The notes beneath the pieces were generated by a model. The model saw only the letters and a program-made list of their open reading frames with translations, was not told the DNA's origin and did not search any database. This document shows positions 7,221 through 20,453 of a stretch of 64,000 nt of DNA, piece after piece. The DNA lies in assembly GCA_022447685.1 (NCBI GenBank), contig JAKVAO010000004.1, positions 1,978-65,977 on the forward strand. The letters are read 5' to 3'. Made by a program: the position numbers and the translations under genes. Each line of letters begins with the position of its first letter. The first letter of the stretch is position 1. Source of the DNA: Candidatus Caenarcanales bacterium. Its GTDB lineage: Bacteria > Cyanobacteriota > Vampirovibrionia > LMEP-6097.

Positions 7221-8393
7221 ATGGACTATATTAAACGAGTAATTAAATTACCGAAGAAATATAGTTTTTTCCTTTTTGGACCGAGACAAGTAGGTAAAAG
7301 TACTCTTCTAAAGAAATATTTTTCTGAGACTGAGAGTATGAAATATGATCTATTAGACTTTTCACTACTAAGGAAATTAGAAAAGGATCCCAGTATATTT
7401 TTTAATGAAGTAGAGTCAAGAGCTAAAAAAATAAAATATGTTTTAGTTGATGAAGTACAAAAACTCCCTTGGATACTAGATGAAGTTCATAGAGTGATTG
7501 AGAATAGTGAAAATCCACCTTATTTTATACTCACAGGTTCAAGTTCACGCAAACTAAAACAATCTCAAGCCAATCTTCTAGCTGGCAGGGCAATATCAAA
7601 ATTTCTATTTCCATTTATCTATGAAGAACTGCACAATTTTAATTTAAATGAAATCTTGCAATTCGGTTCTCTACCTAATGTTTATCTTCAGGAGGACAAA
7701 AATATTAAATACGAAATCCTGAAATCATATACCAACACATATATAAAAGAAGAGATTAAAGAAGAAGCTCTGGTTAGAAATCTCAATGCTTTCAATGAAT
7801 TTTTATACTTTGCTGCTGAAGAGAATGGCAATCTAATAAATTACAGCAATATAGCTCAAGATACTGGAGTTAGTTTAAATACGATTAAGGAATATTATCA
7901 AATACTCATGGATACATTAATGGGTTTTATGCTCATGCCAATCAGAAAGTCAGTCAGGCAACAAATAGCAAGAAGCCCAAAGTTCTATTTTTTTGATACT
8001 GGAGTTCAAAGAGCTTTAAGCAACAAACTACAAGTAGCACTAGTCCAAAAAACCAAAGAATACGGTAAAGCTTTTGAGCACTGGCTTATAAAAGAAATCA
8101 TCTATAAATCTAAGTACAACAATAAAGACTATAAGTTTTCTTTCTATAGAGTAAATGAAAATATTGAAGTTGATTTAGTAATTGAAAAGCCAGATGGAGA
8201 AATACTTGCTATAGAAATCAAAGCAAATAATAACCCTAAAGCAGAAAAATTGAAAGGTTTAAAATCATTTAATAAAATTTTCCCTGAAGCAAAGCTAATA
8301 TGCTCCTGTCTTACAGACAAAATCCAAGAGATAAATAAAGATAATTATAAAATTACTATAATTCCATGGCGAGATCTTCTTGAACTTATATGA
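7221..8393 (+). CDS. AAA+ ATPase, DUF4143 family (COG1373), paralog 1
   Basis: Walker A motif LFGPRQVGKST near the N-terminus, an hhhhDE Walker B (YVLVDEVQ) and a C-terminal DUF4143-like region. It is paralogous to the genes at 15624, 17649 and 62291. Confidence 0.8.
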   Translation: MDYIKRVIKLPKKYSFFLFGPRQVGKSTLLKKYFSETESMKYDLLDFSLLRKLEKDPSIFFNEVESRAKKIKYVLVDEVQKLPWILDEVHRVIENSENPPYFILTGSSSRKLKQSQANLLAGRAISKFLFPFIYEELHNFNLNEILQFGSLPNVYLQEDKNIKYEILKSYTNTYIKEEIKEEALVRNLNAFNEFLYFAAEENGNLINYSNIAQDTGVSLNTIKEYYQILMDTLMGFMLMPIRKSVRQQIARSPKFYFFDTGVQRALSNKLQVALVQKTKEYGKAFEHWLIKEIIYKSKYNNKDYKFSFYRVNENIEVDLVIEKPDGEILAIEIKANNNPKAEKLKGLKSFNKIFPEAKLICSCLTDKIQEINKDNYKITIIPWRDLLELI

Positions 8394-8395
8394 TC

Positions 8396-8409
8396 TGTTA
8401 TTATCTTGG
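8396..8409 (+). promoter_or_regulatory. conserved leader motif copy (TGTTATTATCTTGG) before ATG 8412
   Basis: The TATTAT hexamer lies 8 nt upstream of the ATG. Shares ATTATCTT with the 9938 and 18870 copies. Confidence 0.35.
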
Positions 8410-8411
8410 AT

Positions 8412-9344
8412 ATGGTAACGAATCCTCCTCCTAGTCTTCCTCCTCAAAATGCAGCTTTAGTTAAATTTACCGATACTAATATTGAGAATAGAGTTCCACC
8501 CAATGCTAATCAGGCAATGAATCAAACTAAAGATAAAGATGGAAGGAATCCAATTGATTTAATTTTGGCACAAAAACAAATAAATAATAATTCAGATTCA
8601 ATGAGACCAGAAGATGTAGTTAAAAGACAAATCAACACAAGTATCAAAAATTATGAAGATCTAGAAAGAGTTATCAATGAGACACCAAATGTTATTGACA
8701 CTGAGACTCAAAAAGCATTAGGACAACTTATCACTAATCTAACAGTCTTAAGAGACAATATAGATATTCCTTCTATAACAGAAAATCAAGAATCTCAAAG
8801 TCTGTTATCAAATATTGAACTAATGTCAGGAGCTTTAAATATCTTTAACAGTCAAAGAGCATACATTACTAATAACGATAATACTAATAGACCTGATAAC
8901 TTAGAAGAGAGAACTCAAGTTTTGAACACTTTAAAACAAAATCTCCCAATAGTCATCAACACACAATTAACTAATAGCCAAAAACTTATAAGTACAGCTG
9001 TACTAAAACCACAATATGAGAGTATCATGAATAATTTTGATTCAGCAATTAAGCAACTTCAAAACAACCCTGAAGCTAGTTCAATACTAAAAAATGCCCA
9101 AACTGATCTAAATTTATTTAAAGAAATACTAGGCACAGGTGGAGCAAGTTCTGAATCCGTCATAAATAAGACTTTAACTCTTAATCAAGAACTCACTGAT
9201 TTAAATAATCAACTCAAAGACGGAACTGTTGAAGATTTCGGTCTCAATAATGTTGTGGGTTTTATCGCAAAACTAAGTGATGATCTAGTAGTTGAAGGTA
9301 AAGCACTCGATATACAAGAGGATTTACAAAATATACAAAATTAA
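8412..9344 (+). CDS. hypothetical Q/N-rich effector-like protein (N-terminus MVTNPPPSLPP)
   Basis: The ORF track starts at TTG 8406, but the first ATG is at 8412. The protein has the N-terminal P-P-S motif shared with three other genes and no recognisable domain. The frame continues coding-like for 51 codons after the TAA stop (9345..9500). Confidence 0.6.
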   Translation: MVTNPPPSLPPQNAALVKFTDTNIENRVPPNANQAMNQTKDKDGRNPIDLILAQKQINNNSDSMRPEDVVKRQINTSIKNYEDLERVINETPNVIDTETQKALGQLITNLTVLRDNIDIPSITENQESQSLLSNIELMSGALNIFNSQRAYITNNDNTNRPDNLEERTQVLNTLKQNLPIVINTQLTNSQKLISTAVLKPQYESIMNNFDSAIKQLQNNPEASSILKNAQTDLNLFKEILGTGGASSESVINKTLTLNQELTDLNNQLKDGTVEDFGLNNVVGFIAKLSDDLVVEGKALDIQEDLQNIQN

Positions 9345-9873: not shown

Positions 9874-9937
9874 GAATACTAAGTTTAGCAGGTAGTATCT
9901 GAATAATTGTAGAAGAGTTCAAATTCAAGATAAAATT

Positions 9938-9951
9938 TGCTATTATCTTAA
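9938..9951 (+). promoter_or_regulatory. conserved leader motif TGCTATTATCTTAA immediately upstream of the pre-insertion start codon (ATG 9956)
   Basis: Identical 14-mer at 18870..18883. The TATTAT hexamer lies 9 nt before the ATG at 9956. Confidence 0.4.
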
Positions 9952-9959
9952 AATTATGA

Positions 9960-9967
9960 TTTCTAAT
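9960..9967. repeat. left copy of 8-bp target-site duplication TTTCTAAT
   Basis: Identical octamer at 11219..11226, directly abutting the IS inverted repeats. Confidence 0.6.
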
Positions 9968-11218
9968 TCAGGGCAACCGCAAAGTCGTCTTAGCTATTTT
10001 GGAAAAGAATATCTTGTAAGTACTGATTACTAGAAGCCGCTTTAACTCTTCGTGTTTTAAGACTTTTCTTCGACTCAGAATCTTTTTTAAGTAAATTTAA
10101 AGCAATTTTTCTAGCCATAGCAAGGTTTTGTGGAGCATTATCCTTTCTTACTCTTGATTCATCTTCTCTAAAAACAACATCTAAAATACAATGTAAGTTG
10201 TTTTCTATGTTCCAATGAGATCTAACAATATTCAGCAACTCTTCTGCAGAAAGGTTTAAGCTCGTTATGTAATATCTTCTTTGGCTGGTTTCTTTTTTTG
10301 TTTTTACATCATATTTTTGAGATTCAACAACAAATACCGTTTTTAAATCTTTCCAAGCTGTAATATTATCAAAAAGTTTTTCTTTAATATCCCACTCCGT
10401 GAGAGGGACTGTGTAACATAGAAGTTTTTCAATTCTTCCATGATCTTTCTCAAATTTAGTTTCAAAAAAATCATACTCTCTTTTAAAACCTTCTTCTATT
10501 CCTTTATCTAAAAAGCTTTTTACATTTTTATGGAACAAGCCTTGATTACCTTTTAAAGCTAAAACATAATCAGCTTTTGCTTTTCTAATATCTTTTGCTA
10601 TTTCTTTTTGACAGCCCATTGCATCGATAGTTACTATCTTCTTATTCAAGTCTAAAAGCCTTATCAGTTCAGGAATTGCTGTAATTTCATTACTCTTTTT
10701 GTCTACTGCCACTTGTCCAAGACTCAAGCCATTACTACAACACCAAACATTTACTAAGTGCAAGGCTGACTTTTTTGAGCTATTTTCATATGAAGATCTC
10801 AATGTTTTACCATCAATAGCTACTATTGCTCCTTCTGTGATAGTTGCAAGCGCTTGTGACCAAGCAGTAAAACAGTTAGCAAATTCCTTTGGATTTATTT
10901 CTGCAAAAACTCTTTCAAAAGTATCATGGGACGGGATGCCGTGTTTTAAATCTAAAAAAGTTCTTAACCAATCTTCTTTCGCTTCACATATTGCTACTAT
11001 TTCCTCCCAGTCATCAGTTTTACAGATACTTCCGACTATCGCTAAGAGAATTATTTCTAGCAAATCGTGACGTTTTCCACGAGAATCACGAGGATCTTCT
11101 AGCTCATTAAAATATTCTTCTACTAAACTTTTACTTACTTTCACAACTCTATTAAGTCATGAATACTGGCTATTGGCCAGACTTACATTCGTATTAGACG
11201 ACTTTGCGGTTGCCCTGA
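9968..11218 (-). mobile_element. ISAs1-family insertion sequence (1251 bp), intact
   Basis: ~23-bp terminal inverted repeats: TCAGGGCAACCGCAAAGTCGTCT at 9968.. and its reverse complement ending at 11218. It contains a single transposase ORF and is flanked by the 8-bp direct repeat TTTCTAAT. Confidence 0.8.
9990..11144 (-). CDS. ISAs1-family (H-repeat-associated) DDE transposase
   Basis: 384 aa carrying the ISAs1 hallmark blocks KSNEITAIPELIRLLD, DAMGCQKEIA, LKGNQG, YYITSL and SHWNIENNLHCILDVVFREDE. Confidence 0.85.
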   Translation of the reverse strand: MKVSKSLVEEYFNELEDPRDSRGKRHDLLEIILLAIVGSICKTDDWEEIVAICEAKEDWLRTFLDLKHGIPSHDTFERVFAEINPKEFANCFTAWSQALATITEGAIVAIDGKTLRSSYENSSKKSALHLVNVWCCSNGLSLGQVAVDKKSNEITAIPELIRLLDLNKKIVTIDAMGCQKEIAKDIRKAKADYVLALKGNQGLFHKNVKSFLDKGIEEGFKREYDFFETKFEKDHGRIEKLLCYTVPLTEWDIKEKLFDNITAWKDLKTVFVVESQKYDVKTKKETSQRRYYITSLNLSAEELLNIVRSHWNIENNLHCILDVVFREDESRVRKDNAPQNLAMARKIALNLLKKDSESKKSLKTRRVKAASSNQYLQDILFQNS

Positions 11219-11991
11219 TTTCTAATTACACTCCACCCTCAAGTACTATAAGTTTCAATTACAACAACACAAATCAGACTTTAGTTAAGACTATTGATTA
11301 TAAAGAGCCGGAACTTAATATACCTGGATCTGATGCTAGTCAGAAAATGAAAGCAACAGAAAATGATAATAGAAACAATCATACCCTGACAACAAAACTT
11401 AATGCTATTCCAACAAATATAGAAAACACTGAAAACCTAGTAGCAATAAAAGTACCAGACAACTTTAATATGCAGCAATTTGAAAATATAGGTAGAGAAT
11501 TGTCAGAAGAACTTAATATTCAAATTGAAAAACCTGAAGAGCAAGCTCCAGATCTAAGTGATTTCATTGACATGAAAGAAATTAATCAATTTAACAACAA
11601 TGATACACAAGGAAAAACAGATACACTTCTTAAAACCTTTACAGAAGTAAGAAACTTTTTAAACAAGCCAGAAACTAATATATTTGGAAAAGTAGTTATA
11701 GATACAATGCTAGACAGCCTCTCAAAACTAGTAAAGGAAAATTATGATCAAGTAATTAAGAACGAGACTAACAATAACTCCAAGGATAATTTTAATAAAC
11801 TATTTTTACAATTAAGAGTACTTAAAGTGATTTTAGAAAAGCAAAACACAATTAATAATCTAAATCCCCCAGGACATGACCGACACGACCAAATCGCAGC
11901 AGAAGGCAGAGATATTATTCATACATACGTTGGAAAAATAATTAACCAGACCAATACAATACTTCCAGAAGACCAACAAATGGACTTATAA
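11173..11991 (+). CDS. hypothetical effector-like protein, 5' end replaced by the IS insertion (the present ORF starts at a TTG inside the IS inverted repeat)
   Basis: Removing 9968..11226 restores ...TATCTTAAAATT ATG ATT TCT AAT TAC ACT CCA CCC TCA AGT, encoding MISNYTPPSS, which joins in frame to the downstream body. The Q/N-rich body has no known domain. Confidence 0.6.
   Translation: MARLTFVLDDFAVALISNYTPPSSTISFNYNNTNQTLVKTIDYKEPELNIPGSDASQKMKATENDNRNNHTLTTKLNAIPTNIENTENLVAIKVPDNFNMQQFENIGRELSEELNIQIEKPEEQAPDLSDFIDMKEINQFNNNDTQGKTDTLLKTFTEVRNFLNKPETNIFGKVVIDTMLDSLSKLVKENYDQVIKNETNNNSKDNFNKLFLQLRVLKVILEKQNTINNLNPPGHDRHDQIAAEGRDIIHTYVGKIINQTNTILPEDQQMDL
11219..11226. repeat. right copy of 8-bp target-site duplication TTTCTAAT
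   Basis: Matches 9960..9967. Confidence 0.6.
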
Positions 11992-15505: not shown

Positions 15506-15611
15506 CTATGTTGCACCAAACCTAAATCGACGAATACTTTATTTTCCATAAGATTGCTAAGCGTTTCTAAGCAATTATTAACAAATCGCAAAAAATTTGC
15601 AATTTCATAGG

Positions 15612-15617
15612 TATAAT
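15612..15617 (+). promoter_or_regulatory. -10 box AGGTATAAT, 6 nt upstream of ATG 15624
   Basis: Same GGTATAAT-N6-ATG arrangement as at 7209 and 62278. Confidence 0.4.
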
Positions 15618-15623
15618 ACAAAT

Positions 15624-16829
15624 ATGCAAAAAATTTCCCGAACAATATTAAGTAAATTAATATCTGAGCTGGAGAACGACAAAGTATTGATTCTTTTAGG
15701 AGCAAGGCAAGTTGGTAAAAGCTTTCTAATGAATGAACTAGAGTTAAAACTTAAAAAAGCATCCAAGAAATTTAATAGCTATAACTTAGAAATCCCAAAA
15801 GATAACCGAATCTTCGCTAGAGATGAATTAGAGCTATATGAAGAAATCAGTGAAGGAGTAAATTATTTATTTATAGATGAATTTCAATATTATAATAATG
15901 CTTCTCATTTATTCAAAGCCTTTTATGATGATAGAAGAAAAAAAATCAAAGTTATAGCATCTGGTTCATCTGCTTTAGAAATGCATAAACACCTAAAAGA
16001 AAGTTTAGCTGGCAGAAAAAAAACCTATATTATTTACCCACTTAGCTTCAAAGAAGCTCAAGAAACCAAGGTCAGTTTTAATAATTATTTACTATACGGT
16101 GCTTTAGCAGAAATCCTTAATATAGAACAAAAAACAGATAAAATCACTGCACTTGAAGAAATACACAGTACTTATATATTAAAAGATATCAAAGCACTGA
16201 TTAAAGAAGAAAGTATTTCTAGTTTCAATGCTTTAATATACAGCTTAGCTCAAAACCAAGGACAAATTATTTCAAGTAATTCTTTAGCGAATGATTTGCG
16301 TTTAAATACACAAAGCTTAGAGCGTTACCTAGAGATTCTAGAACAAACCTATGTTCTTTATAAATTATCTAGTTTTTCTAAAAACTTAAGTAATGAGCTA
16401 AAAAAATCTAAAAAATACTATTTTTATGACAGTGGAATTCGAAACTCAATACTAAATAACTTCTCATCGATAGAAAAAAGAAAAGATAAAGGCAGTATCT
16501 ACGAAGCTTACGTAGCACAATTCTTAACTATTAACTCAATACCAAACTCAGAGCTTCGCTTCTGGAGAACCAGGAATGGAGATGAAATTGATTTCGTATT
16601 CTTAAAAAACCAAGTTCCGTATTTATTTGAGGTAAAATCGAAACTAAAAAGAAAAGAAATTCCAAATGCTATGAAAATCTTTTTGCGTAATTACCGTGAG
16701 ATTGGTGGAGCTTATATCATTAACGAAAACCTTGATGAGGAACTAGAATATTCTGGAGTAACTGTAAGATTTATTCCAATTAATAAGCTAGAAGAAGATT
16801 TGGAGATAGCTGAAATATTTTCAACTTAA
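15624..16829 (+). CDS. AAA+ ATPase, DUF4143 family, paralog 2
   Basis: The ORF track starts at TTG 15597, which would run through the TATAAT box. From ATG 15624 the protein MQKISRTILSKLISELENDKVLILLGARQVGKSF aligns with the N-terminus of paralog 3 and shows high identity to it overall. Confidence 0.8.
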   Translation: MQKISRTILSKLISELENDKVLILLGARQVGKSFLMNELELKLKKASKKFNSYNLEIPKDNRIFARDELELYEEISEGVNYLFIDEFQYYNNASHLFKAFYDDRRKKIKVIASGSSALEMHKHLKESLAGRKKTYIIYPLSFKEAQETKVSFNNYLLYGALAEILNIEQKTDKITALEEIHSTYILKDIKALIKEESISSFNALIYSLAQNQGQIISSNSLANDLRLNTQSLERYLEILEQTYVLYKLSSFSKNLSNELKKSKKYYFYDSGIRNSILNNFSSIEKRKDKGSIYEAYVAQFLTINSIPNSELRFWRTRNGDEIDFVFLKNQVPYLFEVKSKLKRKEIPNAMKIFLRNYREIGGAYIINENLDEELEYSGVTVRFIPINKLEEDLEIAEIFST

Positions 16830-17648: not shown

Positions 17649-18863
17649 ATGCAGGAATTTCAAAGACAATTAATAGAAACCCTGCTTAAAGAACTTACGA
17701 ACTCTAAAGTTACCTTAATCTTTGGACCTAGACAGAGTGGTAAAAGCTTTTTGATGAATCACATAGCAAGTCAAGTAAAAGGCAAATTTACTTACTACGA
17801 TTTTGAACAACCTGCTGATCTTAGAAAATTTACAGGCAATGATGAGGATATACATGAACTACTTCTAAATTCAGGCAAAACAGTATTCATAGACGAATTT
17901 CATTATCTAAAAAATGCCGGGAAAATTTTTAAAGGAATCTATGACTTAGGTAAACGTAACCCTAAAAAACAAATCAAAATCTTTGCCTCCGGCTCTTCTG
18001 CCATTGAAATGCACAAACATATAAAAGAAAGTATGGCTGGAAGAGTTCACAAATACCAACTTATGCCTCTAAGCTTAGAAGAATACTCATCTATTGATTT
18101 AGATAAAGAAAATTACTTTATTTATGGTGGCTTACCAGAGACTTATCAATATGACGGAGAAGAAAGAGAGAGCTACCTAAATGGTATTCTTGAAACCTAC
18201 ATCCAGAAAGACATTAAATCTCTAGTAAAAGAAGAGAACATTTCAAGTTTTAATAAATTAATCTATATGCTTGCAGCAAGTCAAGGACAAGTAGTCTCAG
18301 TGAGTAATCTTGCAAATGACTTAAGCGTATCAGCACAAACAGTTCAATCTTACCTAGATACTTTGGAGCAGACTTATACTCTTTATCCTTTGAAATCCTT
18401 TTCAAATAACCTTAGCAATGAATTAAAAAAATCGCGTAAGTACTACCTCTATGACCTAGGAATTAGAAATGCACTAATTAAAGACTTTAGTAAATTAAAT
18501 GAGCGCAAAGATCTTGGCTGCATTATGGAAAGCTATGTTTATCACTATCTTCTCTTCATAGCCAATAAAGCAAATACCGATATTTTCTTCTGGAGAACTA
18601 GTAAAGGCAATGAGGTAGACTTCGTCTGGAAAAAAAATCAAAAACTTATTCCTATAGAGGTAAAAAACAAATATGAAGTGAGTAATCTTAGTAAAGGTAT
18701 GGAAACCTTCATGAGATATTACCCTCTAACAGAAAAAGCTATTATTTTGTTTAATAAGTCAAATAATTTTGATGATTATCAGGAAATTAATCTTCGAGGT
18801 AGGACTCTTTATTTAATAAATATTGGAAATGCTCATTTATACTTGAGGGATGTTTTGCAGTAG
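17649..18863 (+). CDS. AAA+ ATPase, DUF4143 family, paralog 3
   Basis: Walker A motif IFGPRQSGKSF, with long blocks identical to paralog 2 (SSFN.LIY.LA..QGQ..S.SNLANDL.....Q....YL..LEQTY.LY.L.SFS.NLSNELKKS.KYY.YD.GIRN). Confidence 0.8.
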   Translation: MQEFQRQLIETLLKELTNSKVTLIFGPRQSGKSFLMNHIASQVKGKFTYYDFEQPADLRKFTGNDEDIHELLLNSGKTVFIDEFHYLKNAGKIFKGIYDLGKRNPKKQIKIFASGSSAIEMHKHIKESMAGRVHKYQLMPLSLEEYSSIDLDKENYFIYGGLPETYQYDGEERESYLNGILETYIQKDIKSLVKEENISSFNKLIYMLAASQGQVVSVSNLANDLSVSAQTVQSYLDTLEQTYTLYPLKSFSNNLSNELKKSRKYYLYDLGIRNALIKDFSKLNERKDLGCIMESYVYHYLLFIANKANTDIFFWRTSKGNEVDFVWKKNQKLIPIEVKNKYEVSNLSKGMETFMRYYPLTEKAIILFNKSNNFDDYQEINLRGRTLYLINIGNAHLYLRDVLQ

Positions 18864-18869
18864 AACCCA

Positions 18870-18883
18870 TGCTATTATCTTAA
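18870..18883 (+). promoter_or_regulatory. conserved leader motif TGCTATTATCTTAA upstream of the 18921 gene
   Basis: 14 of 14 identical to 9938..9951. It is followed by a vestigial ATGATCTAT (compare ATGATTTCT at 9956), and then TTAAAATATGATT resembles TTAAAATTATGATT at 9956. Confidence 0.4.
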
Positions 18884-18920
18884 TCCTATGATCTATTATA
18901 TTTAGGTTTCAAATTAAAAT

Positions 18921-20453
18921 ATGATTAACCCAAGCTCAAATCAAAGAGACCCCAACATTAGATTCTTACTGAAAACAAATGGTGAAAAAATAACAGTAAC
19001 ACCTTATAAACAAGCTCCTATTGCCAACAAAATTCTCCACAAAAAAGATCAAACAATTCCAAGAGAAGAAACACCTAAAATAAATCCAGAAATGACAGCA
19101 GGAGATTTAACAGAAATATTATTTACATTCAAGCCAAGTGACTTCTACAACAAACAAAATAACGAAAATTTAAGAGTAGTTATAAAGGAGAAAGCAGATT
19201 TTGGCTTTGAAAGGGAAGTTAGAAAGTGGAGAGAGAAATTCCCCAAATTAAACTTTAAACAAAGATTGGGATTCTTATCTATGTTTGCAGAAAAACATGA
19301 AGAGCTAAATATAAAAACAAATCAATTTAAAAGAAATAATGACCACCTAAGAAAATTTATAGACAACCGAGCTTTAGAATTTTTAAGAAATGAAATAGCC
19401 AAGGAAGAACTTTTCTCAAATAAAAATAAAGATTCTAAAGAATTTAATGATTTCAATAATCTATTTATTTCACTAAAAAAACTCAGACACGGTTGGGCAT
19501 ATAGGCAAGACAGTATTCATCAGTTATTAGTACAAAAAATTGACTGGGAAAAACCGCTGACAGACAATACCTTGAAGCTAATAGAAAGTAGTTTCATACA
19601 TCCCATAGAACATTATGCACAAGGTAAAAGAGTTGAATACTATGAAGAAAGAGAATTACTTGCAGAAGTAAGTGCAAACTTAAAAAAATATAATCATCCA
19701 AAACAAGAAATATACAAAAATGCCTTCGAATATAATCCTAATCAAGAATTTGCATTAGCAAAATTAACAGATGTATTGGAAGAGTATTTAAAAGAACAAA
19801 AATTGTCTAACATGGGTGAAAATATGTCACCAGAAATCAATTATGCAATCGAAGGTTCGCTATATTCAATTTTCCATGACTACGCACATTATCTTTTAAA
19901 TGATGAAAATTTTATACCAAATCTTGAAAATGAAAATAAAAGTGAAGAAGATGAATTAAAAGTTAGACAAAATGAATTAAGAGTAGCTGCTGCTGAAGGT
20001 CTGATGTACTTCATATTAGATATACGCTCCTCCGGAAGATTTTCACCATCAAATGAATGGGCGGATTCATCCTACGCAAATCAACTAGAGTATTATAATA
20101 AATACAGAGATACCACACCAGGCTTAAGTAAAGAAGAAGTAGAAGTATCCAAACTTTATGGTATTTTTATGGCTCTCCAAACTATAAACCATAATATGAA
20201 TGTACTTAAAAATTATTCAAACAACAAACTTTTAAACTATCACACTAAGACAAGCGACCTAGCAAAATTTGAGCCTGCACCTACAAAAATAATAGTTAAT
20301 GGCGAGGAAACTACTTGGTACGAACTAATCAAAAAAGATCCTGCTAAATTTGAAAAAATCATTTCTGACTCAATAGATAAAATACTAGAAAATCGAAAAA
20401 AATCTGAAGAAATTATCCCAGACTCAACAGATGAAAATAAAGCTAAAATATAA
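18921..20453 (+). CDS. hypothetical K/N/E-rich effector-like protein (N-terminus MINPSSNQRDP)
   Basis: 510 aa with the N-terminal P-S-S motif of the family and no recognisable domain. Confidence 0.6.
   Translation: MINPSSNQRDPNIRFLLKTNGEKITVTPYKQAPIANKILHKKDQTIPREETPKINPEMTAGDLTEILFTFKPSDFYNKQNNENLRVVIKEKADFGFEREVRKWREKFPKLNFKQRLGFLSMFAEKHEELNIKTNQFKRNNDHLRKFIDNRALEFLRNEIAKEELFSNKNKDSKEFNDFNNLFISLKKLRHGWAYRQDSIHQLLVQKIDWEKPLTDNTLKLIESSFIHPIEHYAQGKRVEYYEERELLAEVSANLKKYNHPKQEIYKNAFEYNPNQEFALAKLTDVLEEYLKEQKLSNMGENMSPEINYAIEGSLYSIFHDYAHYLLNDENFIPNLENENKSEEDELKVRQNELRVAAAEGLMYFILDIRSSGRFSPSNEWADSSYANQLEYYNKYRDTTPGLSKEEVEVSKLYGIFMALQTINHNMNVLKNYSNNKLLNYHTKTSDLAKFEPAPTKIIVNGEETTWYELIKKDPAKFEKIISDSIDKILENRKKSEEIIPDSTDENKAKI

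Follow-up and report, generated by a model that had tools for sequence, protein, structure and literature searches.

Several mobile elements integrate at a fixed distance from a sequence that they recognise, including Tn7 (TnsD at attTn7), IS1397 and ISKpn1, which target repetitive extragenic palindromic (REP) sequences, and IS30 at its hot spots; of these, Tn7 is orientation-specific and possesses a dedicated targeting protein. In addition, promoter-proximal insertions of IS5 and IS1, such as those in the flhDC, bglGFB and glpFK control regions of Escherichia coli, inactivate or rewire genes. Insertion sequences (ISs) of the ISAs1 family are about 1.2-1.5 kb in size, carry a single transposase open reading frame (ORF) and generate a target-site duplication of about 8-10 bp. 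Here, we describe an ISAs1-family element located in a 64-kb stretch of DNA (contig JAKVAO010000004.1, positions 1,978 to 65,977; hereafter the window) from a marine Candidatus Caenarcaniphilales metagenome-assembled genome (MAG), representing a relative of the cyanobacteria that is not photosynthetic, where it interrupts the gene annotated as MK033_01385 within its first codons; the locus tags of the region are MK033_01370 to MK033_01385. The inverted repeats of the family have been given as 14-22 bp beginning with CAGGG, and its direct repeat as 10 bp (PMC11946415, citing Ross et al. 2021). The sole hint of a target preference was the Frankia pyrF locus, which has been hit repeatedly by ISAs1-family elements (PMC11946415), and beyond this hint nothing on ISAs1 target specificity or outward promoters was found in the literature searched, a search made without ISfinder or TnPedia.

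We consider it probable, at about 0.85, that an active, multi-copy ISAs1-family IS, guided by a short motif, beheaded a lineage-specific ORFan gene, which is most likely silenced. According to the proposed course of events, the IS would have transposed into the first codons of this ORFan in a marine Caenarcaniphilales bacterium. Both this element (IS-1) and a second one (IS-2) would integrate in such a way that the duplicated 10 bp begin exactly 9 bp past the sequence (W)ATTATCTT(N)A, the element being in either orientation. At the present locus the motif would be the -10-like box of the gene itself, 6 nt before the ATG, and the insertion would hence have fallen 13 nt past the A of this ATG. 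Reading from the promoter through the ATG and four codons would then continue into the IS, antisense to the transposase, and yield at most a stub of 25 aa, while the 257-codon body would be stranded across the IS with neither native promoter nor native start.

Insertion of an IS at the 5' end of a gene is itself routine, whereas a one-sided motif rule with a fixed offset was not found described for the ISAs1 family. The window IS resembles Tn7 (TnsD), IS1397/ISKpn1 and IS30 in that the positioning sequence lies outside the duplicated target, but differs from them in that its motif is 7-11 bp long, occurs very many times per genome and is one-sided. Unlike Tn7, it is found in either orientation and has a single ORF, with no separate targeting protein or guide RNA. 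It is similar to the IS5/IS1 promoter insertions in landing in a 5' region and probably altering the expression of the adjacent gene, with features of promoter DNA presumably setting the hot spot; however, it lies downstream of both the -10 box and the start codon and separates the gene from both instead of providing or relieving a promoter. Compared with the ISAs1-family elements in the searched papers, for which repeated hits on the Frankia pyrF locus are recorded, the window IS is associated with a defined motif at a fixed distance.

Anatomy and family of the insertion sequence

The element is 1249 bp long (9969..11217), has the termini CAGGG...CCCTG and carries its transposase gene on the minus strand. 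Its ends are perfect 22-bp terminal inverted repeats, CAGGGCAACCGCAAAGTCGTCT, the left one at 9969..9990 (plus strand) and the right one, a perfect match to the left arm, at 11196..11217 (minus strand). The two arms are identical over 22 nt and diverge beyond, and these were the only 2 exact occurrences in the window, with 0 expected from shuffled sequences. A preliminary description of the locus had reported an element of 1251 bp with inverted repeats of about 23 bp and had named absence of the inverted-repeat and duplication structure as grounds for refutation; upon re-inspection, element, repeats and duplication were all present, and only the lengths had to be corrected to 1249 bp and 22 bp. 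An intact transposase gene with a GTG start (9990..11144, minus strand; 384 aa; GenBank:MCH2226400.1) is the sole long ORF and fills the element.

The family assignment made in the preliminary description, that of an ISAs1-family IS with one intact transposase, held: the protein matched NF033564 (transpos_ISAs1) over the full length of the profile (positions 1-314 of 314) with E=8.3e-115 and 383 bits against a cut-off of 70, and in a Pfam scan both PF13808 and PF01609 exceeded their gathering scores. A single DDE transposase with these two domains is also found in ISAs1, the E. coli H-repeat/ISEc1, IS1358 and the cyanobacterial ISAsp2-like elements. The nearest annotated relative found was the ISAsp2-like transposase of Anabaena sp. 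90 (48.7% identity). The ends and the duplication agree with the published ISAs1 description in having a 22-bp inverted repeat beginning with CAGGG and a direct repeat of 10 bp. Likewise, a length of 1249 bp with one ORF of 384 aa falls within the size range and ORF content usual for the family, and the size of about 1.25 kb, the CAGGG ends and the 10-bp duplication are shared with family members such as ISAs1 of Aeromonas salmonicida. Judged by all family features that can be tested on sequence, the window IS is a new member of the ISAs1 family, which differs from known ISAs1 elements in that its transposase is less than 50% identical to the nearest annotated one and that its host is a Melainabacteria-type MAG. 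No match to its inverted repeat was found in the GTDB representative genomes. The relatives on Anabaena/Nostoc plasmids have different ends (e.g. TAGGGCAAACGC, in elements of about 1.6 kb), and clear duplications were not found in five such loci.

Target-site duplication

Twelve identical bases, TGATTTCTAATT, are present at 9957-9968 and 11216-11227; since this repeat overlaps the termini of the IS, the window site alone permits a duplication of 8 to 12 bp. Public contigs encoding the same transposase or close variants were fetched, and 15 distinct left and 10 distinct right flanks were obtained. The base adjoining CAGGG/CCCTG differed among sites, which sets the element at 1249 bp (9969..11217). 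Three sites of the window IS could be paired by an identical 10-mer, ATTTCTAATT in the window and GGTCAATTTT and ATCCATGGTA elsewhere, and the duplication is therefore 10 bp, with its copies of ATTTCTAATT at 9959..9968 on the left and 11218..11227 on the right. IS-2 likewise showed 10-bp duplications at three paired sites. The perfect direct duplication noted previously is thus real, but its length is 10 bp by the paired sites and not 8 bp.

Reconstruction of the interrupted gene

When the IS and one copy of the repeat were deleted, an ORF of 258 codons was restored, beginning MISNYTPPSS and reading ATG-ATT-TCT-AAT-TAC-ACT after TGCTATTATCTTAAAATT. The rebuilt allele, which is identical under the 8-bp or the 10-bp reading of the duplication, has the layout TTCAAA-N17-TGCTATTAT-CTTAAAATT-ATG ATT TCT AAT TAC ACT, and the sequence of the reconstructed empty-site junction is TTATGATTTCTAATTACACTCC. 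It was thereby borne out that the pre-insertion allele can be exactly reconstructed in frame and that the IS severed the ORF from its ATG and from the sequence near the promoter, as had been proposed. The point of insertion is 13 nt past the A of ATG 9956, and the body of the gene (codons 2-258 plus stop; 11218..11991, plus strand) has remained open.

In DNA of 33% G+C, chance does not account for an ORF of 258 codons. Over the 43 codons that adjoin the junction (11218-11346), the codon-usage score was 0.23 in frame, against -0.60 and -1.47 in the other frames; the in-frame mean of the window's genes was 0.36±0.18 and their out-of-frame mean -1.17. In addition, ATG 9956 was the sole in-frame ATG, GTG or TTG from the upstream stop to the junction. 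The length of the ORF, the in-frame coding signal reaching the junction and the lack of another start therefore identify ATG 9956 as the native start.

Upstream of it, a promoter-like site was located at 9918..9946 (plus strand), with TTCAAA at 9918-9923 as -35, a 17-nt spacer and an extended -10, TGcTATTAT, at 9938-9946, scoring 9/12 plus TG. ATG 9956 sits 9 nt past TATTAT and 6 nt past the overlapping TATCTT, a near-leaderless geometry, and no Shine-Dalgarno sequence precedes it. By its composition and position, TTCAAA-17-TGcTATTAT probably acts as the promoter of the interrupted gene.

A motif at a fixed distance from the target

The motif TGCTATTATCTT (9938..9949, plus strand), with its core TTATCTT at 9943-9949, ends exactly 9 nt before the duplicated target, so that the window site reads TGCTATTATCTT, AAAATTATG and the duplicated ATTTCTAATT. 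A second site, rebuilt from contigs L017 and L012, reads TGCTATTATCTT, GAAGATGGT and the duplicated GGTCAATTTT; the two sites share the same 12-mer, the same 9-nt spacing and a gene ATG inside the gap. For the window IS, 24 flanks were of adequate length and were oriented to read towards the IS. In 9 of them, exact TTATCTT ended 19 nt from the IS end, which places it 9 nt from the duplication (11 of 24 when one mismatch was allowed); it matched only once at any other offset, and in reverse complement it was absent from the fixed offset in all 24. Given a background of 3.3e-4 per position, the binomial P is 6e-26. An unbiased test was provided by the first 9 flanks that had not defined the 12-mer, 3 of which matched at least 9 of its 12 positions at the fixed offset (P=2e-7).

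In 7 sites the motif flanked the transposase-3' side of the IS and in 4 the 5' side, the IS being found in either orientation, and at each of the three paired sites of the window IS it was present on exactly one side. If every site has one motif, about half of the flanks are predicted to carry it, and the observed proportion is as predicted. No palindromic second half-site beyond the duplication was seen by eye at the six paired sites of the two elements. A similarity of the motif to the IS's own ends was also considered and discarded, the match by eye being just 6/7 (ATATCTT at IS positions 41-47), which was deemed not meaningful.

IS-2, a second ISAs1-family element of the same organisms (contig L011, 1684-2940; also in L012-L014 and L063-L072), has the ends CAGGGCAAAAGCACTAAA and a transposase of 384 aa that is 45% identical to that of the window. 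Among its 13 flanks, exact TTATCTT was found at the same offset in 4 (5 with up to one mismatch) and at no other offset, and each of its three paired sites had the motif on one side only. The pooled consensus of 16 motif sites is W-A-T-T-A-T-C-T-T-N-A, followed by 7 unconstrained bases and the 10-bp target; its core positions are circular, as the sites were selected on them, whereas the flanking W, A and A are not. It was also noticed that in L011-L014 IS-2 and IS-1 form tandem arrays spaced by exactly one 10-bp duplication, and that in L063 the sequence TACTATTATCTT-AAGTGGTGG-CTTCTATGGG lies beside IS-2, the same 10-mer standing between IS-2 and IS-1. In the simplest reading of these sequences, the tandem arrays would result from two successive insertions at one motif. 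As a statistical pattern, the motif rule is established, and so are the anatomy, family, 10-bp duplication and reconstruction described above.

Several points weigh against motif-guided insertion and silencing of the gene. The rule was drawn from metagenome contigs, which are often chimeric across the repeat; each junction was directly observed, but a left flank was assigned to a right one by a matching 10-mer. The motif is missing from about half of the single flanks, and one-sidedness was verified at six paired sites only. The link between motif and gene start was verified only at the window and one other site. Of the 42 TTATCTT heptamers in the window, 41 are unoccupied, most of them inside genes, and the heptamer alone is an insufficient target. 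Finally, no terminator-like site was found on the plus strand within the IS, and read-through from the native promoter is therefore possible.

Proposed recognition of the motif

In the window, the motif TGCTATTATCTT coincides with the extended -10-like box of the interrupted gene (TGcTATTAT), with TTCAAA at 17 nt; the corresponding hexamer at another site (site 4), TTGACA, is perfect and spaced by 18 nt. Each of these two motifs is part of a good extended -10 whose -35 is spaced at 17-18 nt, and an ATG was seen by eye no more than 19 nt downstream in 8 of the 11 motif-bearing flanks of the window IS. These observations, together with the many intragenic heptamers left unoccupied, would fit an explanation in which TTATCTT sites are marked by the host, through an RNA polymerase open complex, a DNA-binding protein or local melting, or in which insertions at such sites are selectively retained. 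We regard this explanation as possible but rather doubtful, because the 13 exact-match flanks of the two ISs agree in their offset to the very base pair, a precision beyond what selection can explain, and because several motif sites (sites b and c of IS-2 and site 3 of IS-1) have no gene start. Moreover, the rule is common to transposases that are only 45% identical, which fits an inherited property of the protein. Base-pair precision and a rule shared by two divergent transposases thus favour recognition of the motif by the transposase itself rather than by a host factor. More specifically, the balance tips modestly towards the proposal that the ISAs1 transposases of this clade read the short asymmetric sequence (W)ATTATCTT(N)A and place the element on one side of it, at a distance of exactly 9 bp.

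The 12-mer TG[C/T]TATTATCTT with up to one mismatch was located at 8396-8407, 9938-9949 and 18870-18881, in all cases on the plus strand and upstream of ORFan starts, namely 8412 (MVTNPPPS...), 9956 (MISNYTPPSS...) and the 18921 region. By a rough calculation, 2 exact matches were seen in the window against about 0.03 expected. This 12-mer may represent a shared promoter class for lineage-specific genes. At 18870-18923, an ATG 6 nt past the motif opens a mini-ORF of 5 codons (MIYYI*), and a second similar box, TCTATTATATTT, precedes the 510-aa ORF starting at 18921; this region may contain promoters in tandem or a short upstream ORF.

In 15 of 47 window genes a box resembling a -10 element ends 6-10 nt before the start codon, the distance at which such boxes peak, and a Shine-Dalgarno-like sequence is present in only 10 of 47. 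The frequent -10-like boxes near starts and the few Shine-Dalgarno-like sequences suggest that leaderless or near-leaderless mRNAs are widespread. Among these TATAAT-like boxes are those before the starts at 7221, 12943, 16835 (minus strand), 29351, 40941 and 62291; the one before metK, for instance, reads gggTATAATctctaggtATG.

Present state of the locus

On the left side, the native ATG and codons 2-4 (ISN) read into the IS as a stub ORF of 25 aa, MISNSGQPQSRLSYFGKEYLVSTDY* (9956..10033, plus strand), which overlaps the 3' end of the transposase gene in antisense. On the right side, the annotated ORF of 272 aa (MK033_01385, GenBank:MCH2226401.1; 11173..11991, plus strand) has a TTG start in the right end of the IS, so that its first 15 residues, MARLTFVLDDFAVAL, are encoded by the IS (11173-11217). 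This TTG had been placed inside the right inverted repeat; it does belong to the right end of the IS, yet is situated 23 nt interior to the repeat at 11196-11217. The 272-aa ORF is the longest available one, the ORF caller having extended it to the first TTG that the IS offers. In other copies of the element (L012, L014 and L015), gene calls likewise start inside the IS end, apparently at the terminal TTG of ...GGTTGCCCTG, and start codons inside IS ends look like systematic annotation artefacts at IS junctions.

The interrupted gene is most likely silenced. The alternative is that the 272-aa ORF is a functional IS-fusion gene, expressed from an outward promoter of the IS or by read-through from the native promoter, with its start at TTG 11173 or ATG 11347; the insertion would then have rewired the gene instead of killing it. 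Its body is intact as an ORF of 257 codons in all 23 contigs that carry it, which is equally expected if the insertion is recent, all IS copies being at least 99.6% identical. The sole outward match to a promoter, TTCACA-16-AATACT, is weak; it ends 5 nt before TTG 11173 and resembles the leaderless geometry common in the genome, but it is at chance level for this AT-rich region (14 sites against 13.3 expected). A hybrid promoter at the right junction, TTGCGG-17-TACACT, is weak (7/12 by eye). The plus strand of the IS, free of terminator-like sites, would permit transcripts to cross it, but TTG is a poor start and no Shine-Dalgarno-like sequence was found before either TTG 11173 or the first internal ATG 11347. 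Furthermore, the IS is found in both orientations relative to the motif, with no sign of a built-in driving of downstream genes. A functional fusion is therefore unlikely, and silencing is the reading that we retain.

Recency, fixation and reality of the junctions

Copies of the IS differed by 1-5 bases per 1249 bp (at least 99.6% identity). Near-identical copies at many sites, together with the perfect duplication and repeats, suggest that this multi-copy IS is young and active. At the present locus, it was found in every fetched contig that reached the left (14 loci) or right (12 loci) junction, these contigs deriving from many samples and at least two independent assembly series, and all contigs with the neighbouring chorismate mutase gene ran into the IS. 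The same sequences were found in marine metagenomes, including Tara Oceans data. No empty site was detected: 1) the exact 258-aa product of the empty site was absent from a collection of 15 billion proteins, 2) nothing turned up when GTDB genomes and JGI metagenomes were scanned with the protein as a guide, and 3) the exact 22-mer of the reconstructed junction was absent from JGI metagenomes. The insertion looks fixed in the sampled population. As for the recent event proposed in the preliminary description, the perfect duplication and repeats and the copies of at least 99.6% identity fit it; however, the IS is present in all junction contigs fetched, and the collections searched hold no empty-site allele.

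It is highly improbable that the juxtaposition is an assembly artefact, i.e. a contig joined through the repeated IS, for although chimeras with flanks from different sites are numerous among the metagenome contigs that run through this IS, the flanks in the window share the 10-bp duplication (a matching 10-mer would arise by chance at about 1e-6) and rebuild one coding-like ORF with start and promoter, and an independent assembly (L008) spans the same left and right junctions.

The target protein and its surroundings

No Pfam or NCBIfam domain was found in the target protein. A word-indexed search of 5.8 billion proteins returned only the protein itself and one chimeric contig, and two repetitive low-complexity matches were all that a full HMMER scan contributed from 1.84 billion representatives. 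On these searches the target protein is an ORFan. Its AlphaFold model was poor (pLDDT 41.8); at this low confidence, the N-terminal approximately 130 residues are predicted to be disordered and the C-terminal half helical. The gene had been called effector-like, a label that finds no basis in a protein with no domain, no homologue besides itself and a poor structure model.

Paralogy with the neighbouring ORFans at 8412, 14267, 18921 and 5649 was also examined by BLASTP and tblastn and rejected, nothing being found below E=0.4, although one neighbour ORFan shows a loose M-[IV]-x-N-..-PP(S) resemblance to the N-terminus of the target. A family-type N-terminus, as previously suggested, is thus not borne out by BLASTP similarity to the neighbouring ORFans; the shared feature is the 12-nt DNA motif, read here as a probable promoter box. 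Since this motif is shared before three ORFan starts in the window, the conserved feature sensed earlier lies at the DNA level and is not a protein family.

In contig L008 (ERZ23500054 scaffold_5445, 1579-2208), residues 1-88 of the fusion ORF (through ...IENTEN) run into a TerC-family membrane protein, P0002. This TerC fusion is probably an assembly chimera, although it may be a real rearrangement.

Three paralogous AAA_14/DUF4143 ATPase genes are located within 12 kb (7221-8393, 15597-16829 and 17649-18863), interleaved with homologue-less ORFans of 258-510 aa, and the housekeeping neighbours are the chorismate mutase gene and metK. This ATPase/ORFan region looks like a variable island beside housekeeping genes.

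Implications

For annotation, the N-terminal 15 residues of MK033_01385 are an artefact derived from the IS. If true, the motif rule would be, in the sources searched, the first rule defined for the target sites of the ISAs1 family. Precise to the base pair and anchored to a motif, it was derived wholly from natural marine populations and concerns an IS family that has been little studied. Such a rule would let annotators predict landing sites and would explain the tandem IS arrays, and it would offer a single-protein system for studying the way in which a DDE transposase gauges a constant distance from its recognition sequence. Near-leaderless starts, moreover, seem to be frequent in this uncultured Melainabacteria-type lineage. 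If the rule holds, the overlap of the motif with the -10 of some near-leaderless genes would predispose this IS to sever promoter and start from the gene within its first codons.

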